Below, piece by piece: positions 35,684 through 44,178 of a stretch of DNA of 64,000 bases. The position numbers were made by a program, and so were the translations under genes. The DNA lies in NCBI GenBank assembly GCA_964472655.1, contig CAYYLQ010000007.1:30479-94478 (forward strand), read 5' to 3'. The notes beneath the pieces are model-generated. The model did not search any database and was not told the origin of the DNA. It saw only the letters and a program-made list of their open reading frames with translations. The DNA comes from an uncultured Nitrospirales bacterium. Lineage in GTDB: Bacteria > Nitrospirota > Nitrospiria > Nitrospirales > NS-4. Each line of letters opens with the position of its first letter. Positions within the stretch are counted from its first letter, which is position 1.

Positions 35684-37337
35684 GCACGTTCTCCTTCTCC
35701 AGAATCCATTTCACCGCCCCGGCCAGATCGCAGGCCGTGCAGTCGGGAACGAGGTTCTGGTCCATCATGCGCGCCTGTTCTTCCTCCGGACGATGCCCGC
35801 TCGCCACAAAGACCGCCGTCGCGCCGATGTTCCGGGCCAGTTGCACGTCGCTGGCCTTGTCTCCGATCACGATCGCACGGTCGGGCGCAAGGCCCAGTTC
35901 CTGTTGCGCGCGCAGGACCAGACCGGGCGCGGGCTTGCGGCAGGCGCAGGCGTCTTCCGGATGGTGCGGGCAGATAAAGATCCCGTCGAGCCTCGCACCG
36001 TCTTCGGCCAGCAGCTCGCGCAATCTCAGATGAACCGCGTCCAGCTGCTCCTGCGTGATAAGCCCCCGTGCCACTCCCGACTGGTTGGACAGCACCACCG
36101 CCTTGAAGCCGGCCCGGTTCAGGCGCGCCACGGCCTGCCCGACGCCCGGCAGGAGCTGGAGCCGATCCGGCTGATTGAGATAGCCGGGATCGAAATTGAG
36201 CGTTCCGTCCCGATCTAGATAGACCACCGGCGCCTTGCCGCCGTCTTCGGCAGGCTGTGTTTTCTGCTCCGCATGGCGCATGCCGAGCTGCCGCCTGGCC
36301 GCTGTATGAACGACGTCCGCTCCGATCCACTGCATGCAGCGGTGGTCTATGGGGCATTCCCTCAGCAGACAGGGCGAGCACTCGACAGGGTGCCGGACCA
36401 GCTCATGGCCGGGACCGTACGGCGCCGTCGTCGCCGGATTGGTCGGCCCGAAAATCGCCACCAGCGGCACGCCGAACGCCGCCGCAATGTGCATGGGGCC
36501 CGTGTCGTTCGTGATGAACAGCCGGCACCGTTTGATCAAGGCCATCAACTGCCGCACCGTCGTCCGGCCGGAAAAGACGATGGTGGGCGCCGTCATCATC
36601 CCGGCGATAGTGGTTCCCAACTCTTCCTCGCCCTTGCCGCCGAAAATCAGCACGCAGGCCTCGTGCTCGGCCGCCAGGCGGTCCGCCACCTGGGCAAACC
36701 GCTCCGGGAGCCAGCGTTTGGCCGAGCCGTACACAGAACCGGGGTTGAGACCGATCACGACCCGATCGGGCTTGACGCCGAACGCCCGCAGATGTTCCGC
36801 CGCCGCCGCATCTTCTCCCGGTATCGTCCGGAGCGTCGGAGCCGCAGGCTCGACCGGCATGTTCAGCGGCTTGAGCAACTCCAGATAGTACTCTACTTGG
36901 TGTTTGCGCCGGATCTTCGGCGTCAGCGGAACCCGATGGGTCAGCAGCAACGAACGCCCGTCGGTGGCGTACCCATAACGGTTGGGGATGCCGGCCAGTG
37001 CCGTGATGGCCGCGGCTTCGAACGCGTTCTGAAACAGCACCGCCAAGTCATAGCGCCCGCGGTTCAACTGGATCGCCAGAGACAGTTTGCCGCCGAGGCC
37101 GGCGTGCGGCCCCGGATCACGGTACAGCGCGATGTCATCGATGGCCGGGTGGCATTGCAACAGCTCGGCGACCGCGGGCTTCGCCAGCAGGGTGATCTTC
37201 GCCTGCGGAAAGCCCGCACGCAGGGCCGCGAGCGCCGGCGTCGCCAGCACCGCGTCGCCGATCCAGTTCGTGCTCCGGACCAGAATGCGCTTGACCGCCC
37301 CCGGCCTGGTCAGCCGTTTAAAACGACCCGCGTCCAT
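35670..37337 (-). CDS. Fusion protein: heptosyltransferase II (WaaF)-like GT9 domain + D,D-heptose-1,7-bisphosphate phosphatase (GmhB) HAD domain
   Basis: N-terminal RILVRSTNWIGDAVLATPALAALRAGFP and ITNDTGPMHIAAAFGVPLVAIFGPTNP (GT9). C-terminal VVYLDRDGTLN, VLSNQSGVARG, ICPHHPEDACACRKPAPG and IVIGDKASD match the GmhB motifs. Single 555-aa frame. Confidence 0.8.
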   Translation of the reverse strand: MDAGRFKRLTRPGAVKRILVRSTNWIGDAVLATPALAALRAGFPQAKITLLAKPAVAELLQCHPAIDDIALYRDPGPHAGLGGKLSLAIQLNRGRYDLAVLFQNAFEAAAITALAGIPNRYGYATDGRSLLLTHRVPLTPKIRRKHQVEYYLELLKPLNMPVEPAAPTLRTIPGEDAAAAEHLRAFGVKPDRVVIGLNPGSVYGSAKRWLPERFAQVADRLAAEHEACVLIFGGKGEEELGTTIAGMMTAPTIVFSGRTTVRQLMALIKRCRLFITNDTGPMHIAAAFGVPLVAIFGPTNPATTAPYGPGHELVRHPVECSPCLLRECPIDHRCMQWIGADVVHTAARRQLGMRHAEQKTQPAEDGGKAPVVYLDRDGTLNFDPGYLNQPDRLQLLPGVGQAVARLNRAGFKAVVLSNQSGVARGLITQEQLDAVHLRLRELLAEDGARLDGIFICPHHPEDACACRKPAPGLVLRAQQELGLAPDRAIVIGDKASDVQLARNIGATAVFVASGHRPEEEQARMMDQNLVPDCTACDLAGAVKWILEKENVLVLE

Positions 37338-38380
37338 TCGTCAAATCCTTCGTGCCATGTCAATTCGATCCGCACCGCCCAGATCTGCACTTCTTGTTTC
37401 GTCACCTCATCGAGCTGCGCCAGCTTCACCGCATCCTTCTCGGTCGTCACGATCCGCCCTGCGCCCGCCCGCTCCGCAGCCTGTCGGACCCTCTGCACGT
37501 CCTCCCGAGAGTATGCGTGATGGTCGGGAAAGACGCAATGCTTCGCGACCGTCGCCCCGGCGGTGACCAGTAACTGTCGGAACGACTCAGGATACCCGAT
37601 CCCGCTCACGGCGAGCACCTGCTCGCCTTTCAGCACGGACGGCTCGACCGCGACTGTCCCACCGACCCGCATGACCGCGCTTGGCGCAAAGTCCGTCACC
37701 CAGACCGGCACCGCCGACGCCGCCGCGCGGACACGCGCCTTGATCTCATCCAGCCGCCCTCCCTGCGAGGCGCGCGTCACGAGCACCGCCGTGGCCCGCG
37801 CCATGGCCGAGAGCGGTTCGCGCAGGCGTCCTCTCGGCAGCAGATAGCCGTTGCCGAACGGCGCGCCCGCATCCAGGACCAGGATATTCGTATCCCGCCG
37901 CAAAGCCAGGTGCTGATAGCCGTCGTCCATGATCAGCGTATCGATGTGGTGGCGCTCGATCAGATGCCGCCCCGCCGACGGGCGATCGGCCCCAACCGCC
38001 ACCGGCACGCCCGGGCACCGTTGCGCGATCAGAAACGGCTCATCGCCCGCGTCGCTTGGATTGCCCGGTATCGATTGCCCATCGGAAACCTCTACGATCG
38101 TGTCGGCGCTACGCCGCTTGTAGCCCCGGCTGACGACTCCGACCTTGCGGCCACGCGCCCGCAGCGCCGAGGCCAGCGCGATCACCACCGGCGTCTTGCC
38201 GGTGCCCCCTACCGTCAGATTACCGATACTAATGACGCGGCAGGGCAAAAAGTGTTGTGTCAGCAGTCCGCGTGCGTAAAGCGCCGACCGCGCCTTCATC
38301 GCGAGGCCGTACATGGACGCCAGCGGGATTAACGGAGCAAGTGTCCATCCTAATGGAGACGAATCTTCAATTGAGAGCAT
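37310..38380 (-). CDS. lpxK: Tetraacyldisaccharide 4'-kinase
   Basis: ISIGNLTVGGTGKTPVVIALA P-loop. Start placed at ATG 38380 (MLSIEDSS...). The track's 757-aa ORF is an out-of-frame extension across waaA. Confidence 0.85.
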   Translation of the reverse strand: MLSIEDSSPLGWTLAPLIPLASMYGLAMKARSALYARGLLTQHFLPCRVISIGNLTVGGTGKTPVVIALASALRARGRKVGVVSRGYKRRSADTIVEVSDGQSIPGNPSDAGDEPFLIAQRCPGVPVAVGADRPSAGRHLIERHHIDTLIMDDGYQHLALRRDTNILVLDAGAPFGNGYLLPRGRLREPLSAMARATAVLVTRASQGGRLDEIKARVRAAASAVPVWVTDFAPSAVMRVGGTVAVEPSVLKGEQVLAVSGIGYPESFRQLLVTAGATVAKHCVFPDHHAYSREDVQRVRQAAERAGAGRIVTTEKDAVKLAQLDEVTKQEVQIWAVRIELTWHEGFDEWTRVVLNG

Positions 38381-38394
38381 GTGTTCCACGGCTT

Positions 38395-39690
38395 CTAGTC
38401 CAGAACCCGCGCGATCAAGGCCACGGTCCGCGCCACCGCGCCCTGATTCTCCAGCACGAGCTGATAGGCGGCTTTCCCTCTCTCTTCCAGCTTCGCTCGG
38501 TCTTTCAGCAGAGCCGTCATGACATCGGCCATCTCGTCGGCGTCGCGCACTTGGATCCCGGCTCCCTGGCGGAGGAACTGCTCCGCCGCTTCGGCGAAGT
38601 GGTCCATATGGGGACCGAAGACGACGGGTTTGCCCCAGGCCGCCGGCTCCAGGGGGTTGTGTCCGCCCACATCGACCAGGCTGCCCCCCACGAAAACCAG
38701 CGTCGCCTCCCGATACAGCGCCGCCAACTCGCCGCGCGTATCCAGGACGATCACGCGCGGGCCGGCCGATTCGGCCAGCCGCGTGCGCCGGAGCACATCG
38801 AACCCGCACAGACGCGCCGCCGCGCATACCGCGTCCGCCCGCTCGATATGCCTCGGCGCAAGCACCAGCACTAGCGAAGGGACGACAGCGAGCAGGCGGC
38901 GGTAGCAGTCCAGCACCGCTTCTTCCTCTCCCGGATGCGTGCTGCCCGCCACGAACAGGTCCTCGCCCTCCGCCACGCGCAGCTCGCGTTTGGACATCCG
39001 TCCGGGCGCCGCCTGCGTCAACGCGGCGCCCTGATCGTACTTGAGATTGCCGGTCCGCACGACCCGCTCCGGGGCCGCTCCCAGTTGGACGATCCGGTCC
39101 ACGTCCCGATCGGTCTGCATGGAACAGACGGTGACCGCCGCCAGGACACGGCGGAAGAACGGACGGAGCCGGAGATAGCCGGCGAAGGACTCGGTCGAGA
39201 GACGGCCGTTCGCGAGGACCACCGGGATGCCGCGCGCCGCCGCCTCGCGCAGGAAGTTCGGCCACAATTCCGTTTCGACGATGATGATCAGGCGGGGGCG
39301 CACTGCATCCAACACCGACCGGACCGCCCAGGGGAAATCCAGCGGGAAGTAGAGGTGCTCGGCCTGCCCTTCCAGCTTCTTCTGAATCGTCTCCCGACCG
39401 GTCTCGGTCACGGTCGACACTACGATCCGGGAATCCGGATAGCGCATCTTCAATTGCTGGATCAGCGGGACGGCCGCCGTCGCCTCGCCCATCGAGACGG
39501 CGTGTACCCAGATTGTCCGGCCGTCGCCCCACTCCGGAGCCGGACGCCTCCATCCCAGGCGTTGCCGCAGGCCCGGGCGACATCGCTTCTTGGCCAGCAG
39601 CAGAGCCAGAACGAACGGCGAAACGAGAATGAGGAGCAGATTGTACAGGCCGAACATGCGGCGCTCTTCACTGTCCGAACCGGCGCTCAT
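38395..39690 (-). CDS. waaA: 3-deoxy-D-manno-octulosonic acid (Kdo) transferase
   Basis: IWVHAVSMGEATAAVPLIQQL and a GT30-like C-terminal half. The start ATG 39690 overlaps the stop of the restored DUF374 frame (ATGA). Confidence 0.9.
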   Translation of the reverse strand: MSAGSDSEERRMFGLYNLLLILVSPFVLALLLAKKRCRPGLRQRLGWRRPAPEWGDGRTIWVHAVSMGEATAAVPLIQQLKMRYPDSRIVVSTVTETGRETIQKKLEGQAEHLYFPLDFPWAVRSVLDAVRPRLIIIVETELWPNFLREAAARGIPVVLANGRLSTESFAGYLRLRPFFRRVLAAVTVCSMQTDRDVDRIVQLGAAPERVVRTGNLKYDQGAALTQAAPGRMSKRELRVAEGEDLFVAGSTHPGEEEAVLDCYRRLLAVVPSLVLVLAPRHIERADAVCAAARLCGFDVLRRTRLAESAGPRVIVLDTRGELAALYREATLVFVGGSLVDVGGHNPLEPAAWGKPVVFGPHMDHFAEAAEQFLRQGAGIQVRDADEMADVMTALLKDRAKLEERGKAAYQLVLENQGAVARTVALIARVLD

Positions 39691-40342
39691 CCGCTTACGG
39701 CGCGATCCGCCTCATCGCCGAGCTTGTTGAGCGCCGCCTCCACTTCCACCCGTTTCGCCTCAAGCTGCGTGCGGTCGGCGTCGGCCTGTACGCTGATCGG
39801 CGCACCCCACATGAAGCAGGCCCGGCTGAACGGCAACGGGACTTCGAAGCGGTCCCAGCTGCGGAAGAGTTTTTTTTTGAGGCGGCAAAAGTCAGGGGGA
39901 TGATCGGCAGCCCCGTCAGCTTCGCCAGTTCCACCACACCGGCCTGCGCGACGCACCGGGGTCCTCGGGGACCGTCTGGTGTGACCGCCAGATCGGCGCC
40001 GGACCGGCCCAACCGCACCATCTGCCGGAGTGCCCGCGCGCCGCCGCGCGTGGTGGAGCCGCGCACGGTGTCGAAGCCGAACCGGCGCACGACGCGATGG
40101 ATCAGCTCGCCGTCTCGATGCTCGCTGATCAGGATGGAGAGCCGGGATCCGCCGTAGCACAGGGGCATCATGATCTGCCGGCAATGCCAGAATGCGATAA
40201 TCACAGGGCGGCCCGCCTTCCAGAATGCTTGGACGCGGTCGGCGTGCAGCGTCCGGAGACGCAGCGTCCGACCGAGCGCGCGGATCGTGAGATAGCCCAC
40301 CGGGGGGATCAGCCATTGCTTCAACCGGTTCACGAACGTCAT
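39687..40342 (-). CDS. DUF374-domain (lysophospholipid-acyltransferase-like) protein, reading frame broken at an A9 homopolymer
   Basis: The frame of ORF 39695..40342 carries the conserved N-terminal part (IIAFWHCRQIMMP...ISEHRDGELI...VTPDGPRGP...IIPLTFAASKK). After the A9 run (plus-strand T9, 39870-39878) it becomes Arg/Ser-rich nonsense. The -1 frame continues with KKLFRSWDRFEVPLPFSRACFMWGAPISV...LNKLGDEADRAVSG and ends in an ATGA overlap with waaA. Confidence 0.7.
39870..39878 (-). other. A9 homopolymer containing an A_AAA_AAC heptamer at the DUF374 frame break
   Basis: Minus strand reads gcc tca aaa aaa aac tct in the upstream frame. One extra A, or a -1 slip, gives ...S K K K L F R S W D R F... 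Confidence 0.8.
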
Positions 40343-42087
40343 GCCGGCGCGTCCTCCCCACAGTCATCATGGAACTGCATCTGATACAGCCGCTGGTAGA
40401 CACCCGCCTTCGCCAGCAGTTCTTCGTGTCGGCCGATGTCCACGAGACGGCCTCCGGCCAGCACCGCGATCCGGTCCGCCCGCTGGACCGTGGAAAGCCG
40501 GTGGGCGATCACGAACGTCGTCCGGCCCTTCATCAGGTTGACCAGCGCCATCTGCACCATACGCTCGGATTCCGTGTCGAGCGAGGATGTGGCTTCGTCG
40601 AGGATAAGGATCGGGGGATTGCGCAGCAGGGCCCGCGCGATGGCCAAACGCTGCCGCTCTCCGCCCGAGAGCTTGACCCCGTTCTCGCCGATGAGCGTGG
40701 CGTACCCGTTCGGCAGGCGCATGATGAACTCGTGCGCGTACGCCGCCTTCGCCGCATCCGTGATGGCTTCCTCGTTCACTTCATCCTTGCCGTACGCGAC
40801 GTTGTTCCGCACCGTGTCGTCGAACAGCAGGGTCTCCTGCGAGACGATGCCCATCTGCCGCCGGATGGCCGGCAGGCGGATCTCGCGGAGGTCCACGCCG
40901 TCGATGAGGATCGCTCCCGCCGTCGGGTCGTAAAATCGCGGGATCAGGTTCACGAGCGTGGTCTTGCCGGCGCCGCTGCTCCCCACAATGGCCAGCACCT
41001 CACCGGTCTTGACCGTCAGCGAAATGTCCTGCAAGGCCGGCGTCTCGCTCCCTTCGTACCGGAACGAGACCTTTCGCAGCTCGATCGTGGACCGCACGCC
41101 GCCGAGCCCGCGCGTGCCCGTATCCAGCGCGGCCTCGGTCGGCACATCCAACACGGTGAAGACTCGCTCGGCGGCCGCCAGCGCCTGCTGGATGGTATTG
41201 TTGGCCGCAGCCAGGCGTTTGATGGGGTTGTACATCAGGAACATTGCAGTGAGAAAGGAAAAGAAAGTGCCGGGGGTCATTGTCCCTCGAATGACCTGCG
41301 AGCCCCCGTACCAGATGATTCCCGCCACCCCGATGACCCCGACCGCTTCGAGCACGGGCGACGTGATGGCGGCGACCTGCGTCGATTTCATCAAAGTGCG
41401 GAAGTACGCCTCGTTGTGCCACGCAAAACGCCGGTCTTCAGCCGACTCCTGCGTAAAGCCCTTCACAATGCGGATGCCGGTCAGCGTCTCCTGCAAGGCC
41501 GTGGTCATGTCGGCCGTCCGTTCCTGACCGGTCGTGGCGATCCGGCGAAGCCGGTTGCCGAACCGGACCATCGGATAGACCGACAACGGGATCGCGACGC
41601 TCGACAGCAGGGTTAACTGCCAGTTCTGATAGAACACTACGCCGAACAGGACGAGAAACGTCAGGCTTTGCTGGAAAAGATCCTTGAGCACGCCGGATAC
41701 GGCATTGTGAATCCAGTTCGTGTCGTTGATGACGCGGGACAGCATCCGGCTGGAGGGATTCTTCAGGTGGAAGCCGACCGGCAGGCGCATCAGATGGCTG
41801 AAGAGACGTTGGCGGATGTCGGTTACAACGCGACTCCCGACGTAGATCATCAGATAGGTCTGGCCGTAGCTCGCGATCCCTTTGAGCACCGACACGACCA
41901 TCAACGCCACCGGCAGAAGGATCAGCCACGTCGCGTTCTTGCTGATGAAAATCTCGTCGAGGGCGGGCCGAACCAGCCAAGCGTAGGCGCCCGTCAAAGC
42001 GGCCACCGCCCCGGAGCAGACGGCCGCGGCGATCAGGCGGCCCCAATATGGCCGCATGTATTCCAGGAGACGCAGGTACAGCCGCAT
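40339..42087 (-). CDS. msbA: Lipid A export ABC transporter permease/ATPase
   Basis: Six-TM N-terminal half followed by GSSGAGKTTLVNLI (Walker A), LSGGERQRLAIARALL (signature) and ILILDEATSSLD (Walker B). Lies within the lipid A cluster. Confidence 0.9.
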   Translation of the reverse strand: MRLYLRLLEYMRPYWGRLIAAAVCSGAVAALTGAYAWLVRPALDEIFISKNATWLILLPVALMVVSVLKGIASYGQTYLMIYVGSRVVTDIRQRLFSHLMRLPVGFHLKNPSSRMLSRVINDTNWIHNAVSGVLKDLFQQSLTFLVLFGVVFYQNWQLTLLSSVAIPLSVYPMVRFGNRLRRIATTGQERTADMTTALQETLTGIRIVKGFTQESAEDRRFAWHNEAYFRTLMKSTQVAAITSPVLEAVGVIGVAGIIWYGGSQVIRGTMTPGTFFSFLTAMFLMYNPIKRLAAANNTIQQALAAAERVFTVLDVPTEAALDTGTRGLGGVRSTIELRKVSFRYEGSETPALQDISLTVKTGEVLAIVGSSGAGKTTLVNLIPRFYDPTAGAILIDGVDLREIRLPAIRRQMGIVSQETLLFDDTVRNNVAYGKDEVNEEAITDAAKAAYAHEFIMRLPNGYATLIGENGVKLSGGERQRLAIARALLRNPPILILDEATSSLDTESERMVQMALVNLMKGRTTFVIAHRLSTVQRADRIAVLAGGRLVDIGRHEELLAKAGVYQRLYQMQFHDDCGEDAPA

Positions 42088-43250
42088 CAGCGCGACACCC
42101 CTTCCAGGCGCAACTGATCGAGCACGACGGCAGCCGCCCGCGCGGACGCGCCCGGGGCCCCGAGCAGGGTCCTGACGCGGGCCATCTCCGTGCGCATGCC
42201 GTCCCGGTACGCCGTATCGTCGAGGATCCGGCGCGCTTCCTCCGCAAGATTCTGCGGGGTCGCCCGACGCTGGATCAACTCGGGGATGAAGGGCTTACCG
42301 GCCACGATGTTGGCCAACCCGATGCTACCCACGCGAACCAGCAGCCGCGCGAGCAGGTACGTGAACCAGGGCAGCTTGTACGCAATCACCATGGGCGTCC
42401 CGATGATCGCGGCCTGGAGCGTCGCGGTGCCGGACGCGATGAAGAGGAGGTCCGCCGCCGCCATGACACCGTCGGGATCCCGCGACACCAGACGCACGTC
42501 CAGGCCGGCCTCATCGCATGTCCGCTTGATGGCCTCCTGATCCACCGTCTCGGCGACGGCAAGAATCAAGCGAAGAGGCCGGTCCTGCTGGAGCAGCCGC
42601 GCGGCTTCCAGAAAAACCGGCAGCAGGTCCTTCACCTCCCCGGTCCGGCTGCCCGGGAGCAGGCCAATCACGCGGGCGTCGCGCGGAATGCCGTACGCGG
42701 CGCGCAACCGGTCCCGGTCGTAGGAGGGCGCCACATCGTCCAGAAGCGGGTGACCTACAAAGGTGCAGGGAACCCCCGCCCGTCGGTAGAGCTCTTCTTC
42801 GAACGGTAGCACCACCACCACGTGATCCACCCGCCGCTGCATCCACTTCATGCGGCGGGGCCGCCACGCCCAGAGCTGCGGCGCGATGTAGTACAGGACG
42901 CGGATCCCGGCCTGTTTGGCAACGCGCGCGAAATGGAAGTTGAGGCCGGGGTTGTCGATCAGGATGACGAGATCAAATGGCTCGCGCCGCAGGATCTTCC
43001 TCAAGGTAAGCACCCGTTTGACCATGGTACGGACGGCGGCAGGCCCGACAAGTCCGATCACGTCCACATGGCCGATGTCCTGGACCAGTTCCACGCCCGC
43101 GGCCCTCATGCGGGGCCCGCCCACGCCGAGAATGACCAGGTCCGGGGCCTGCACCTTCAGGGCGGCGGCGAGATGGGCGCCGTGCAGGTCGCCGGAGGCT
43201 TCACCCGCGATGATGAGAACCCGCCGAGCCACCAGACTCCCTCCGTCCAT
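42087..43250 (-). CDS. lpxB: Lipid-A-disaccharide synthase
   Basis: RVLIIAGEASGDLHGAHLAAAL N-terminus. Start placed at ATG 43250 (or GTG 43232). The track's 433-aa version extends out of the conserved region. Confidence 0.9.
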   Translation of the reverse strand: MDGGSLVARRVLIIAGEASGDLHGAHLAAALKVQAPDLVILGVGGPRMRAAGVELVQDIGHVDVIGLVGPAAVRTMVKRVLTLRKILRREPFDLVILIDNPGLNFHFARVAKQAGIRVLYYIAPQLWAWRPRRMKWMQRRVDHVVVVLPFEEELYRRAGVPCTFVGHPLLDDVAPSYDRDRLRAAYGIPRDARVIGLLPGSRTGEVKDLLPVFLEAARLLQQDRPLRLILAVAETVDQEAIKRTCDEAGLDVRLVSRDPDGVMAAADLLFIASGTATLQAAIIGTPMVIAYKLPWFTYLLARLLVRVGSIGLANIVAGKPFIPELIQRRATPQNLAEEARRILDDTAYRDGMRTEMARVRTLLGAPGASARAAAVVLDQLRLEGVSR

Positions 43251-44178
43251 GACGGGCAATCTCGGCCATGATCGCGCCAGCGAGCTCCAGCGCAGCCGTG
43301 CCCTCCTTCCCCGAGACCAGCGGCGGGACACCGGTGCGGACCGCATCGAGAAAGGCCTCCAGTTCGAGTGCGAGCGGCTCGCGCCCATCGCCCCGGACCT
43401 GTTCCGTCAGGAGCTCATGGCTCCCCGACGTACCCATGGCCCGGCGTCCCACGACGGCCGTTTGCCCCGCCAGGTCAATCACCACAAATCCCCCGGGCTC
43501 GTAGATCCGGAGCTCGCGGACCTTGGATTCGGCGACGCGACTCACGCTGAACGTCGCGACACAGCCGTTGTCGAACACCACCCGCGCCTGCGCGACATCC
43601 GTCGCCGCCGACAGAACGGACACGCCGCTCGCCCGGACGTCCCGCACCGGCGCGCCGACCATCCCCAGGACGAGATCCAGGTCGTGGATCATCAAATCCA
43701 GCACCACGTCCACGTCCGCTCCGCGTGGCGTGAAGGGCGCCCAGCGCCGGCACTCGATGAGCGTGGGCGCCTTGACGGCGCCACGCGTCGCGCGAAACGC
43801 CGAGTTGAAGCGCTCGATGTGCCCCACCTGCAGCGTCACGCCGCGGCTCGACGCGACGGCCGTCAGATCGCGCGCCTGCTCCACCGTCGCCGCCAACGGC
43901 TTCTCCACAAGCACGTGCAGACCAGCCTCCAGGCAGGTTTTCGCGATTTCGTAATGCAGGAGCGTCGGCGCCGCCACGCTGACGGCGTCCGCCTCTCCAA
44001 GAAGCACCCGGTAGTCGGCCACTGCCTGACAGCCGTGTCGCGAGGCGACCACCGCGGCCCGTGCGCTGTCCGCATCCGCAACGGCAATCAAGCGAGCCAT
44101 GGGCAGTTCGGCATAGACGCGGGCATGGTGCTGCCCGAGCGATCCCACACCGATGACGACGACTTTGATTGGCTCCAT
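43201..44178 (-). CDS. Gfo/Idh/MocA family oxidoreductase embedded in the lipid A operon (candidate UDP-GlcNAc 3-dehydrogenase, GnnA-like)
   Basis: IKVVVIGVGSLGQHHARVY, VLVEKPLAAT and VGHIERFNSAF. Positioned between lpxI and lpxB. The GnnA assignment is inference only. Confidence 0.75.
   Translation of the reverse strand: MEPIKVVVIGVGSLGQHHARVYAELPMARLIAVADADSARAAVVASRHGCQAVADYRVLLGEADAVSVAAPTLLHYEIAKTCLEAGLHVLVEKPLAATVEQARDLTAVASSRGVTLQVGHIERFNSAFRATRGAVKAPTLIECRRWAPFTPRGADVDVVLDLMIHDLDLVLGMVGAPVRDVRASGVSVLSAATDVAQARVVFDNGCVATFSVSRVAESKVRELRIYEPGGFVVIDLAGQTAVVGRRAMGTSGSHELLTEQVRGDGREPLALELEAFLDAVRTGVPPLVSGKEGTAALELAGAIMAEIARHGRRESGGSAGSHHRG

Follow-up and report, generated by a model that had tools for sequence, protein, structure and literature searches.

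How does a bacterium make a complete enzyme from a gene whose two parts lie in different reading frames? This question is raised by lpxJ (DUF374) in a stretch of 64,000 nucleotides (nt) from an uncultured Nitrospirales bacterium (contig CAYYLQ010000007.1, positions 30,479 to 94,478), here called the window. The source is a metagenome-assembled genome (MAG) of 2.17 Mb, 62% GC and 99% completeness. The gene lies on the minus strand as an open reading frame (ORF) at 40342..39695, the 0 frame, and its ATG overlaps the msbA stop codon as ATGA. Codons 155-158 read TCA AAA AAA AAC and hold a run of nine A's (A9) at 39878-39870. Past this run, the 0 frame continues as NSSAAGTASKSRCRS... for 57 Arg/Ser-rich codons to a TAA at 39697-39695, and the -1 frame reads KKKLFRSWDRFEVPLPFSRACFMWGAPISV...AVSG (also written KKKLFRSWDRFEVPLPFSR...AVSG) to a TGA at 39689-39687, overlapping the ATG of waaA (39690-39688). 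Read from an mRNA with ten A's (A10), the two frames join into a product of 218 amino acids (aa) that contains ...FAASKKKLFRSWDRF.... An earlier account made from the letters of this DNA (the sequence-only reading) had described the frame change at the run, the ATGA overlap of the -1 frame with waaA and the degeneration of the 0 frame into Arg/Ser-rich sequence. All three are borne out by the sequence, and in relatives the degenerate part is a non-homologous tail of variable length. The same account counted 158 conserved N-terminal codons; these do share one frame, and the common residues number 157 (M1-K157).

Comparison across genomes indicates, with high confidence, that the run is a genuine and selected recoding site. 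It is the only A/T run of at least eight bases in the window, and one of two of at least nine in the whole genome. Codon usage does not explain its presence, because AAA accounts for 32% of the Lys codons and TCA for 8% of the TCN Ser codons in the long ORFs of this genome. The out-of-frame layout is conserved. A six-frame protein search of 40 relatives returned lpxJ in two pieces lying in different frames, one covering residues 1 to ~160 and the other ~150 to 218, in 33 of the 34 genomes of families f1-f3 that hold the gene, single-contig genomes included. Single-piece genes were confined to family f4 and one f3 genome. The relatives matched residues 1-158 with 80-87% identity, and the second match covered residues 139-218. 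The 33 loci found in two pieces carry A9 or A10 at the equivalent position, and all require the same -1 shift, equal to the gain of one base.

The layout can be followed well beyond these relatives. A site pattern of A8, 13 or 14 bases and TGGGA was present in 287 of the 301 genomes of the order and in 38 of its 41 genera. The reversed pattern, which served as control, had almost no matches in the high-GC families f1 and f2, with chance matches being common in the lower-GC f3. The double pattern match expected of an in-frame A10 or A11 did not occur among the sites listed. Of the 14 genomes without the pattern, three belong to f4 (in frame, no run), two are in frame with a decayed run, one has a variant site (G177, discussed below), one has its gene cut by a contig end, and seven showed no match whatever. 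A phylum-wide search, together with fetched regions, also recovered the split in two more families of the class to which the order belongs; in the wider phylum, it was present in families f7, f8, f12 and f19. In a pattern scan with one genome per species, the matches listed included split lpxJ genes in Syntrophorhabdus, Syntrophorhabdaceae, several unclassified MAGs labelled "bacterium" or "delta proteobacterium", and one Candidatus Polarisedimenticolia MAG.

Among the 150 distinct sites collected, 145 require a -1 shift (A9 in 125, A10 in 20), one requires the opposite shift, and four are in frame, still holding a run of 8-10. All 146 out-of-frame sites have A9 or A10, and none has fewer than nine. 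The comparison of tract lengths in related genomes that the sequence-only reading had proposed thus returned A9 or A10 with one and the same shift at 145 of 150 sites. The same layout is also present in a RefSeq record, Nitrospira sp. T9.

Several individual sites deserve separate mention. In G177, a genome of family f3, the run is A10 followed by T4, where sister genomes have T5, and the frame of its gene would be restored by removal of one base or by a +1 shift. On a 60-kb contig from ENA (P0120), the 0 frame continues past KKN for about ten residues before the LpxJ frame resumes (..KKNSSKVGIASCFLPFGRGVF..), and the W-D pair described below is missing; a further, compensating indel or a copy with genuine loss of function is likely. 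At four sites from genera g2 and g5 of the window's family, the -1 frame passes the waaA start and continues for ~495 codons. The slipped product of these four genes would be an LpxJ-WaaA fusion, inside which a waaA-type Met (..LMFGAYNI..) is kept. Finally, a Nitrospira-type split lpxJ occurs on VFZE01000107.1 and VFZE01000128.1, both from a MAG labelled Acidimicrobiia (K_DeepCast_65m_m1_022); this bin probably contains Nitrospira contigs.

The substitution pattern around the run offers a greater level of detail on how the broken frame is maintained. At the A10 sites, the C that follows the run has been substituted to A, and TGG keeps its spacing of 21 nt from the run start. Hence, genes with the longer run remain out of frame. 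The base 3' of the run is C, A or G, which gives L, I or V in the -1 frame. The periodicity of column entropy is that of the 0 frame before the run, with 1.56 bits at the third position, and that of the -1 frame after it, with 1.49 bits at the third position. Over the 54 codons past the run, the -1 frame is open in all of 117 sequences, and the 0 frame is interrupted by a stop in 99 of them. The tail read in the 0 frame ranges from 1 to 88 codons in the relatives. Two lineage-specific stops confine the shift further. In family f8, the 0 frame ends one codon past the run (CTC TGA), and a TAA of the -1 frame overlaps the run start in f12 and Syntrophorhabdia. As these stops flank the run, the two frames can be joined only inside it. 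A split gene with a separately initiated C-terminal piece was considered and rejected on account of the same TAA in f12 and Syntrophorhabdia, where no start codon precedes the W-D pair. The codon phase of the run also differs, being TCA AAA AAA AAC in Nitrospirales and CGC/AGT AAA AAA AAA C in f8, f12 and Syntrophorhabdia, and the same additional base is required in both phases.

The importance of the shift becomes clearer upon comparison with characterized enzymes. The profile PF04028 (DUF374) scores 103 bits (E 6e-30; gathering cut-off 26.8) with the 0-frame part and the joined product alike; no NCBIfam model matches LpxJ. DUF374 has been renamed LpxJ; in Helicobacter, Campylobacter, Wolinella and Rickettsia, this enzyme provides lipid A with its 3' secondary acyl chain (PMC6148475). 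Activity of R. typhi LpxJ requires W60, H61, D86, D132, W172 and D173, and the W172A and D173A substitutions each eliminate it (PMC6148475). All six residues are present in the joined product, consistently offset by 8-9: W52-H53, D77, D123 and W163-D164. W172 and D173 align with W163-D164, the pair that is present only after the frame shift. Since it sits six codons past the run, the 0-frame product lacks it. The LpxJ proteins of Helicobacter pylori, Campylobacter jejuni, Wolinella and Rickettsia (Rubin et al. 2014; PMC6148475) share PF04028 and the essential W-H, D, D and W-D residues with the protein described here, and their genes likewise lie among lipid A genes, which here are lpxB, msbA, waaA and lpxK. 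The gene is hence predicted to encode an LpxJ-family late acyltransferase that transfers a secondary acyl chain to lipid A, in agreement with the lipid A-associated, acyltransferase-like function assumed by the sequence-only reading. In contrast to the Nitrospirales gene, we know of no report of a frameshift in any of the characterized lpxJ genes.

An AlphaFold2 model was made for P0005, a natural in-frame orthologue that is 78% identical to the joined product (predicted local distance difference test score, pLDDT, 88.9; predicted template modelling score, pTM, 0.86). In this model, the shift site lies in a short turn after the strand 147-154. The part beyond it comprises four strands and a 27-residue helix, ~28% of the protein. 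Foldseek matched the full-length model to PlsC (5kym, E 3e-7) and to PatA and LpxM (E 1e-6 to 1e-5). As modelled, the -1-frame part is integral to the acyltransferase fold. No member of the LpxL/LpxM family (PF03279) and no second lpxJ copy was detected in the 99%-complete genome; by these searches, the recoded lpxJ is its sole recognizable lipid A late acyltransferase.

Natural in-frame genes allow for a direct comparison with the shifted ones. In-frame orthologues read S-x-K-x-[LV]-F-x-SWD, equal in length to the SKKKLFRSWD of the A10-mRNA product, and most of them have no run (TCGCACAAGCAT, TCCCAAAAAACA, CGGAAGAAAAAG, TTGAAAAAGAAA). The TTGAAAAAGAAA version is that of a close relative and occurs on six contigs. 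A maximum-likelihood tree built from 165 LpxJ sequences groups the shifted genes of Nitrospirota and Syntrophorhabdia in a single clade (SH-like approximate likelihood-ratio test, SH-aLRT, 90), with the in-frame genes nested inside it. This nesting calls for about eight changes of state. From these alignments a clear association emerges, in that genes requiring the shift all keep at least nine A's and genes back in frame have mostly let the run decay.

How, then, might the two frames be joined? We hold with moderate confidence that the slip occurs mainly at transcription. LpxJ is encoded in two frames that meet at the run, and the full-length active protein of 218 aa would be made only upon gain of one base there. 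The most likely route is slippage of RNA polymerase on the nine-base homopolymer; some of the mRNAs would then have A10 (also A13 and so forth) and be translated normally. The unslipped A9 mRNA would give a truncated product without the essential W-D pair, the four strands and the C-terminal helix. In this way, the run would hold LpxJ output at a set fraction of that of its operon neighbours msbA and waaA. Bacterial RNA polymerase is known to slip efficiently at about nine A's, near the length of the RNA-DNA hybrid (PMC5009743).

The main alternative, which we regard as rather unlikely, is programmed -1 ribosomal frameshifting or ribosome sliding on Lys codons at A_AAA_AAA or A_AAA_AAN; all mRNA would then carry A9, and some ribosomes would slip back one base. 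The sequence-only reading had named both mechanisms, and both are retained here at these unequal strengths. An in-phase X_XXY_YYZ heptamer occurs in every lineage (A_AAA_AAA and A_AAA_AAC within TCA AAA AAA AAC; A_AAA_AAA in the phase of f8 and Syntrophorhabdia), and the shift required at 145 of 150 sites is -1, the direction typical of this mechanism. However, seven A's suffice for the ribosomal heptamer and yet the run never falls below nine, which argues for polymerase slippage. The two A's beyond any in-phase heptamer are invariant, at a place where in-frame orthologues accept R, H, T or K. The differing codon phases of the run among lineages were likewise counted for transcription over translation.

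Further points bear on the nature of the slippery sequence and its surroundings. A_AAA_AAC is employed by the insertion sequence IS1 without a stimulator (PMC4066793), and for A-run genes, the Mg-chelatase gene among them, frame shifting in reporters is proportional to the length of the run (PMC3711429). However, AAC, the commonest last codon, re-pairs poorly with AAA in bacteria (PMC4066793), which favours polymerase slippage, although the in-phase A_AAA_AAA one codon before AAC would still be usable by ribosomes. This poor re-pairing, the variable base past the run and the other codon phase found elsewhere also speak against the emphasis that the sequence-only reading placed on A_AAA_AAC. 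Polymerase slippage is favoured as well because no stimulator is conserved, neither a hairpin or pseudoknot at 5-9 nt spacing nor an upstream Shine-Dalgarno-like sequence. The consensus fold of 27 diverse sites (RNAalifold) reaches just -4.5 kcal/mol with no covariation. A weak 5-bp GGGA..TCCC hairpin begins 13 nt past the run and is formed by the W-D and [IV]-P codons. The site of the window folds no better than its shuffles (z-score +1.3), and Rfam gave only a sub-threshold eiav_FSE match (16.8 bits against a gathering cut-off of 40), driven by the heptamer. Frameshifting of the -1 type would not rescue the G177 gene, where the opposite shift is needed. This gene, which needs the loss of a base, and a pair of contigs with A10 and A13 described below fit polymerase slippage better than a one-directional ribosomal shift, without amounting to proof.

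DNA-level phase variation is a third explanation, in which replication slippage would toggle lpxJ between ON (A10, A13) and OFF (A9) in subpopulations of a contingency tract, with no recoding involved. Length variants of this kind do exist in public contigs. When the joined product was searched against a public protein collection, most close relatives were represented by the 0-frame ORF (72-73% coverage), along with full-length in-frame proteins. In several lineages, the DNA of the latter shows A10 and then CTC or GTC as usual (nine metagenome contigs, L230-L235 and L238-L240), and one GTDB genome (L175) also has an in-frame A10. Two Logan contigs (L236 and L237, from SRR21422022 and SRR12397970) have the same ends and are identical over 5.45 kb of lpxB-msbA-lpxJ-waaA except for A10 against A13, both being in frame. 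Nevertheless, about 97% of species representatives share one OFF state. The OFF alleles are nearly all one base short, with no A11 and a single allele in the opposite direction, where a contingency tract would be expected to scatter to both sides. Moreover, the A10 sites have lengthened by substitution in a way that preserves the broken frame, lineages back in frame have mostly destroyed the run via synonymous G's, and purifying selection on the downstream frame equals that on the upstream part. We therefore consider phase variation very unlikely as the main mechanism. As the sole reading of the locus, which the sequence-only reading had allowed for, it fits poorly, and the part of that option that stands is the occurrence of in-frame A10 and A13 alleles in a minority of public contigs.

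An error of sequencing or assembly at the homopolymer, or a gene that has only recently become a pseudogene, both listed by the sequence-only reading and suggested by the classic signature of one genome with a homopolymer frameshift and by some long-read MAGs in the set, can be given a negligible probability, because the identical layout recurs in hundreds of independent assemblies from various platforms and laboratories, including single-contig ones and RefSeq Nitrospira sp. T9, and both parts of the gene, the downstream frame included, are under coding constraint.

Returning to polymerase slippage, several observations weigh against it or limit its reach. Every A9 run includes an in-phase A_AAA_AAA heptamer, and poly(A) frameshifting and ribosome sliding also increase with run length. 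For both of these reasons, the share of translation cannot be separated by sequence alone, and transcriptional and translational routes may both contribute. Two Syntrophorhabdales genomes retain the A9 run in an in-frame gene. The in-frame A10 contigs include Nitrospira defluvii-like ones whose reference genomes have A9; in this lineage, ~42 out-of-frame cluster representatives (at least 97% identity) stand against one in-frame cluster of 19 members. If the in-frame contigs stem from DNA rather than RNA libraries, the run also mutates in populations, as an A9 tract of any kind is expected to do. To some degree, switching at the level of DNA may therefore come on top of recoding. The efficiency of the slip and its physiological purpose are things that we infer, and attenuation or regulation is conjecture.

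Within these limits, one can imagine the run acting as a two-tier dial for lipid A acylation, an idea that we consider unlikely as it stands. In the first tier, slippage set by elongation rate, temperature and nucleoside triphosphate pools may determine the amount of active LpxJ relative to MsbA and WaaA, and with it the share of lipid A that carries the secondary chain. In the second tier, rare heritable A10 or A13 alleles may act as high-expression variants in a population. In the genera where the -1 frame runs into waaA, the slip may also set whether the LpxJ-WaaA fusion is made.

By analogy, the lpxJ site would work like Thermus dnaX, Shigella mxiE/spa13 and the A-run chelatase genes. In Thermus thermophilus dnaX, RNA polymerase adds at least one A at an A9 run, so that two products arise at a fixed ratio (Larsen et al. 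2000, as summarized in PMC5009743). Going by that summary, both cases involve a nine-A homopolymer in a housekeeping gene with no further signal. They differ in that full-length dnaX is in frame and slippage makes the short form, whereas full-length LpxJ would need the slip. Shigella flexneri mxiE and spa13/spa33 (9-10 nt homopolymers), as cited in PMC3711429, resemble lpxJ in having overlapping frames joined only in transcripts with an extra base, which limits output. According to the same citation, the Shigella genes belong to a virulence plasmid of one genus, whereas lpxJ is chromosomal, serves envelope biogenesis and extends across the phylum and beyond. The Mg-/Co-chelatase genes chlD/bchD/cobT (Antonov et al. 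2013, PMC3711429; PMC9227772) share with lpxJ a conserved poly(A) run in a metabolic gene and a -1 shift, and in reporters their efficiency rises with run length (PMC3711429; PMC9227772). Their runs span 7-11 A's in a different gene family, whereas the lpxJ run is held at 9 or 10. In the chelatase clusters, as in lpxJ, either transcription or translation could be the mechanism. Poly(A) frameshifts of Buchnera and Blochmannia, to the extent that PMC5009743 cites them, are similar in that out-of-frame genes are kept functional by slippage, as proposed here for lpxJ. Those genomes are described there as AT-rich and decaying, with many tracts; in contrast, the host of lpxJ is free-living, with 62% GC, only two runs of at least nine and deep conservation of the site. 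A search of the literature on DUF374/LpxJ, Nitrospira, slippage and programmed frameshifting found no description of this site; the GeneTack survey included a single Nitrospirae genome.

Nitrite oxidation and complete ammonia oxidation are performed across the world by Nitrospira and its relatives, whose only recognizable lipid A late acyltransferase appears to depend on recoding. In the NCBI annotation, the 0-frame ORF passes for an intact "lysophospholipid acyltransferase family protein". As a consequence, LpxJ is mis-described in hundreds of genomes, and pathway reconstructions may wrongly credit or miss secondary acylation. For the study of recoding, lpxJ would be a chromosomal case of great depth and phylum-wide extent, where the slip is needed for the full-length enzyme and not for a shorter isoform; its natural revertants serve as built-in controls. 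On this reading, lipid A acylation in the outer membrane is predicted to be sub-stoichiometric and tunable.

Table. Coordinates of lpxJ, its recoding site and the adjoining lipid A genes in the window
Feature	Position	Strand	Remark
lpxJ (DUF374) part 1, 0 frame, codons 1-157	39872..40342	-	carries W52-H53, D77, D123
A9 homopolymer (plus strand T9), probable recoding site	39870..39878	-	-1 move needed, equal to one extra A in the mRNA
lpxJ part 2, -1 frame, KKKLFRSWDRF...AVSG and stop	39687..39878	-	carries W163-D164
0-frame tail past the run, NSSAAGTASKSRC...IAP, then TAA	39695..39871	-	non-homologous; would be the product of unslipped mRNA
waaA (Kdo transferase)	38395..39690	-	NF004388, E 1e-122
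msbA (lipid A flippase)	40339..42087	-	TIGR02203, 642 bits, cut-off 602
lpxB, upstream within the same gene string	42087..43388	-	TIGR00215, E 6e-90
lpxK, 3' of waaA, start approximate	37310..38410	-	TIGR00682, E 1e-68

Two further features were noted during the survey. The second genomic A/T run of nine lies outside the window, at 65980-65988 of contig C10, in a small minus-strand ORF; as a second recoding site it was rejected, since it encodes an in-frame Leu-Lys-Lys-Lys-Gly. Within the window, an open frame of 757 aa at 37310-39583 on the minus strand takes in lpxK and reaches back over most of waaA, out of frame with the latter. This long frame is an artefact of high GC, and the LpxK match within it is limited to the last ~366 codons.

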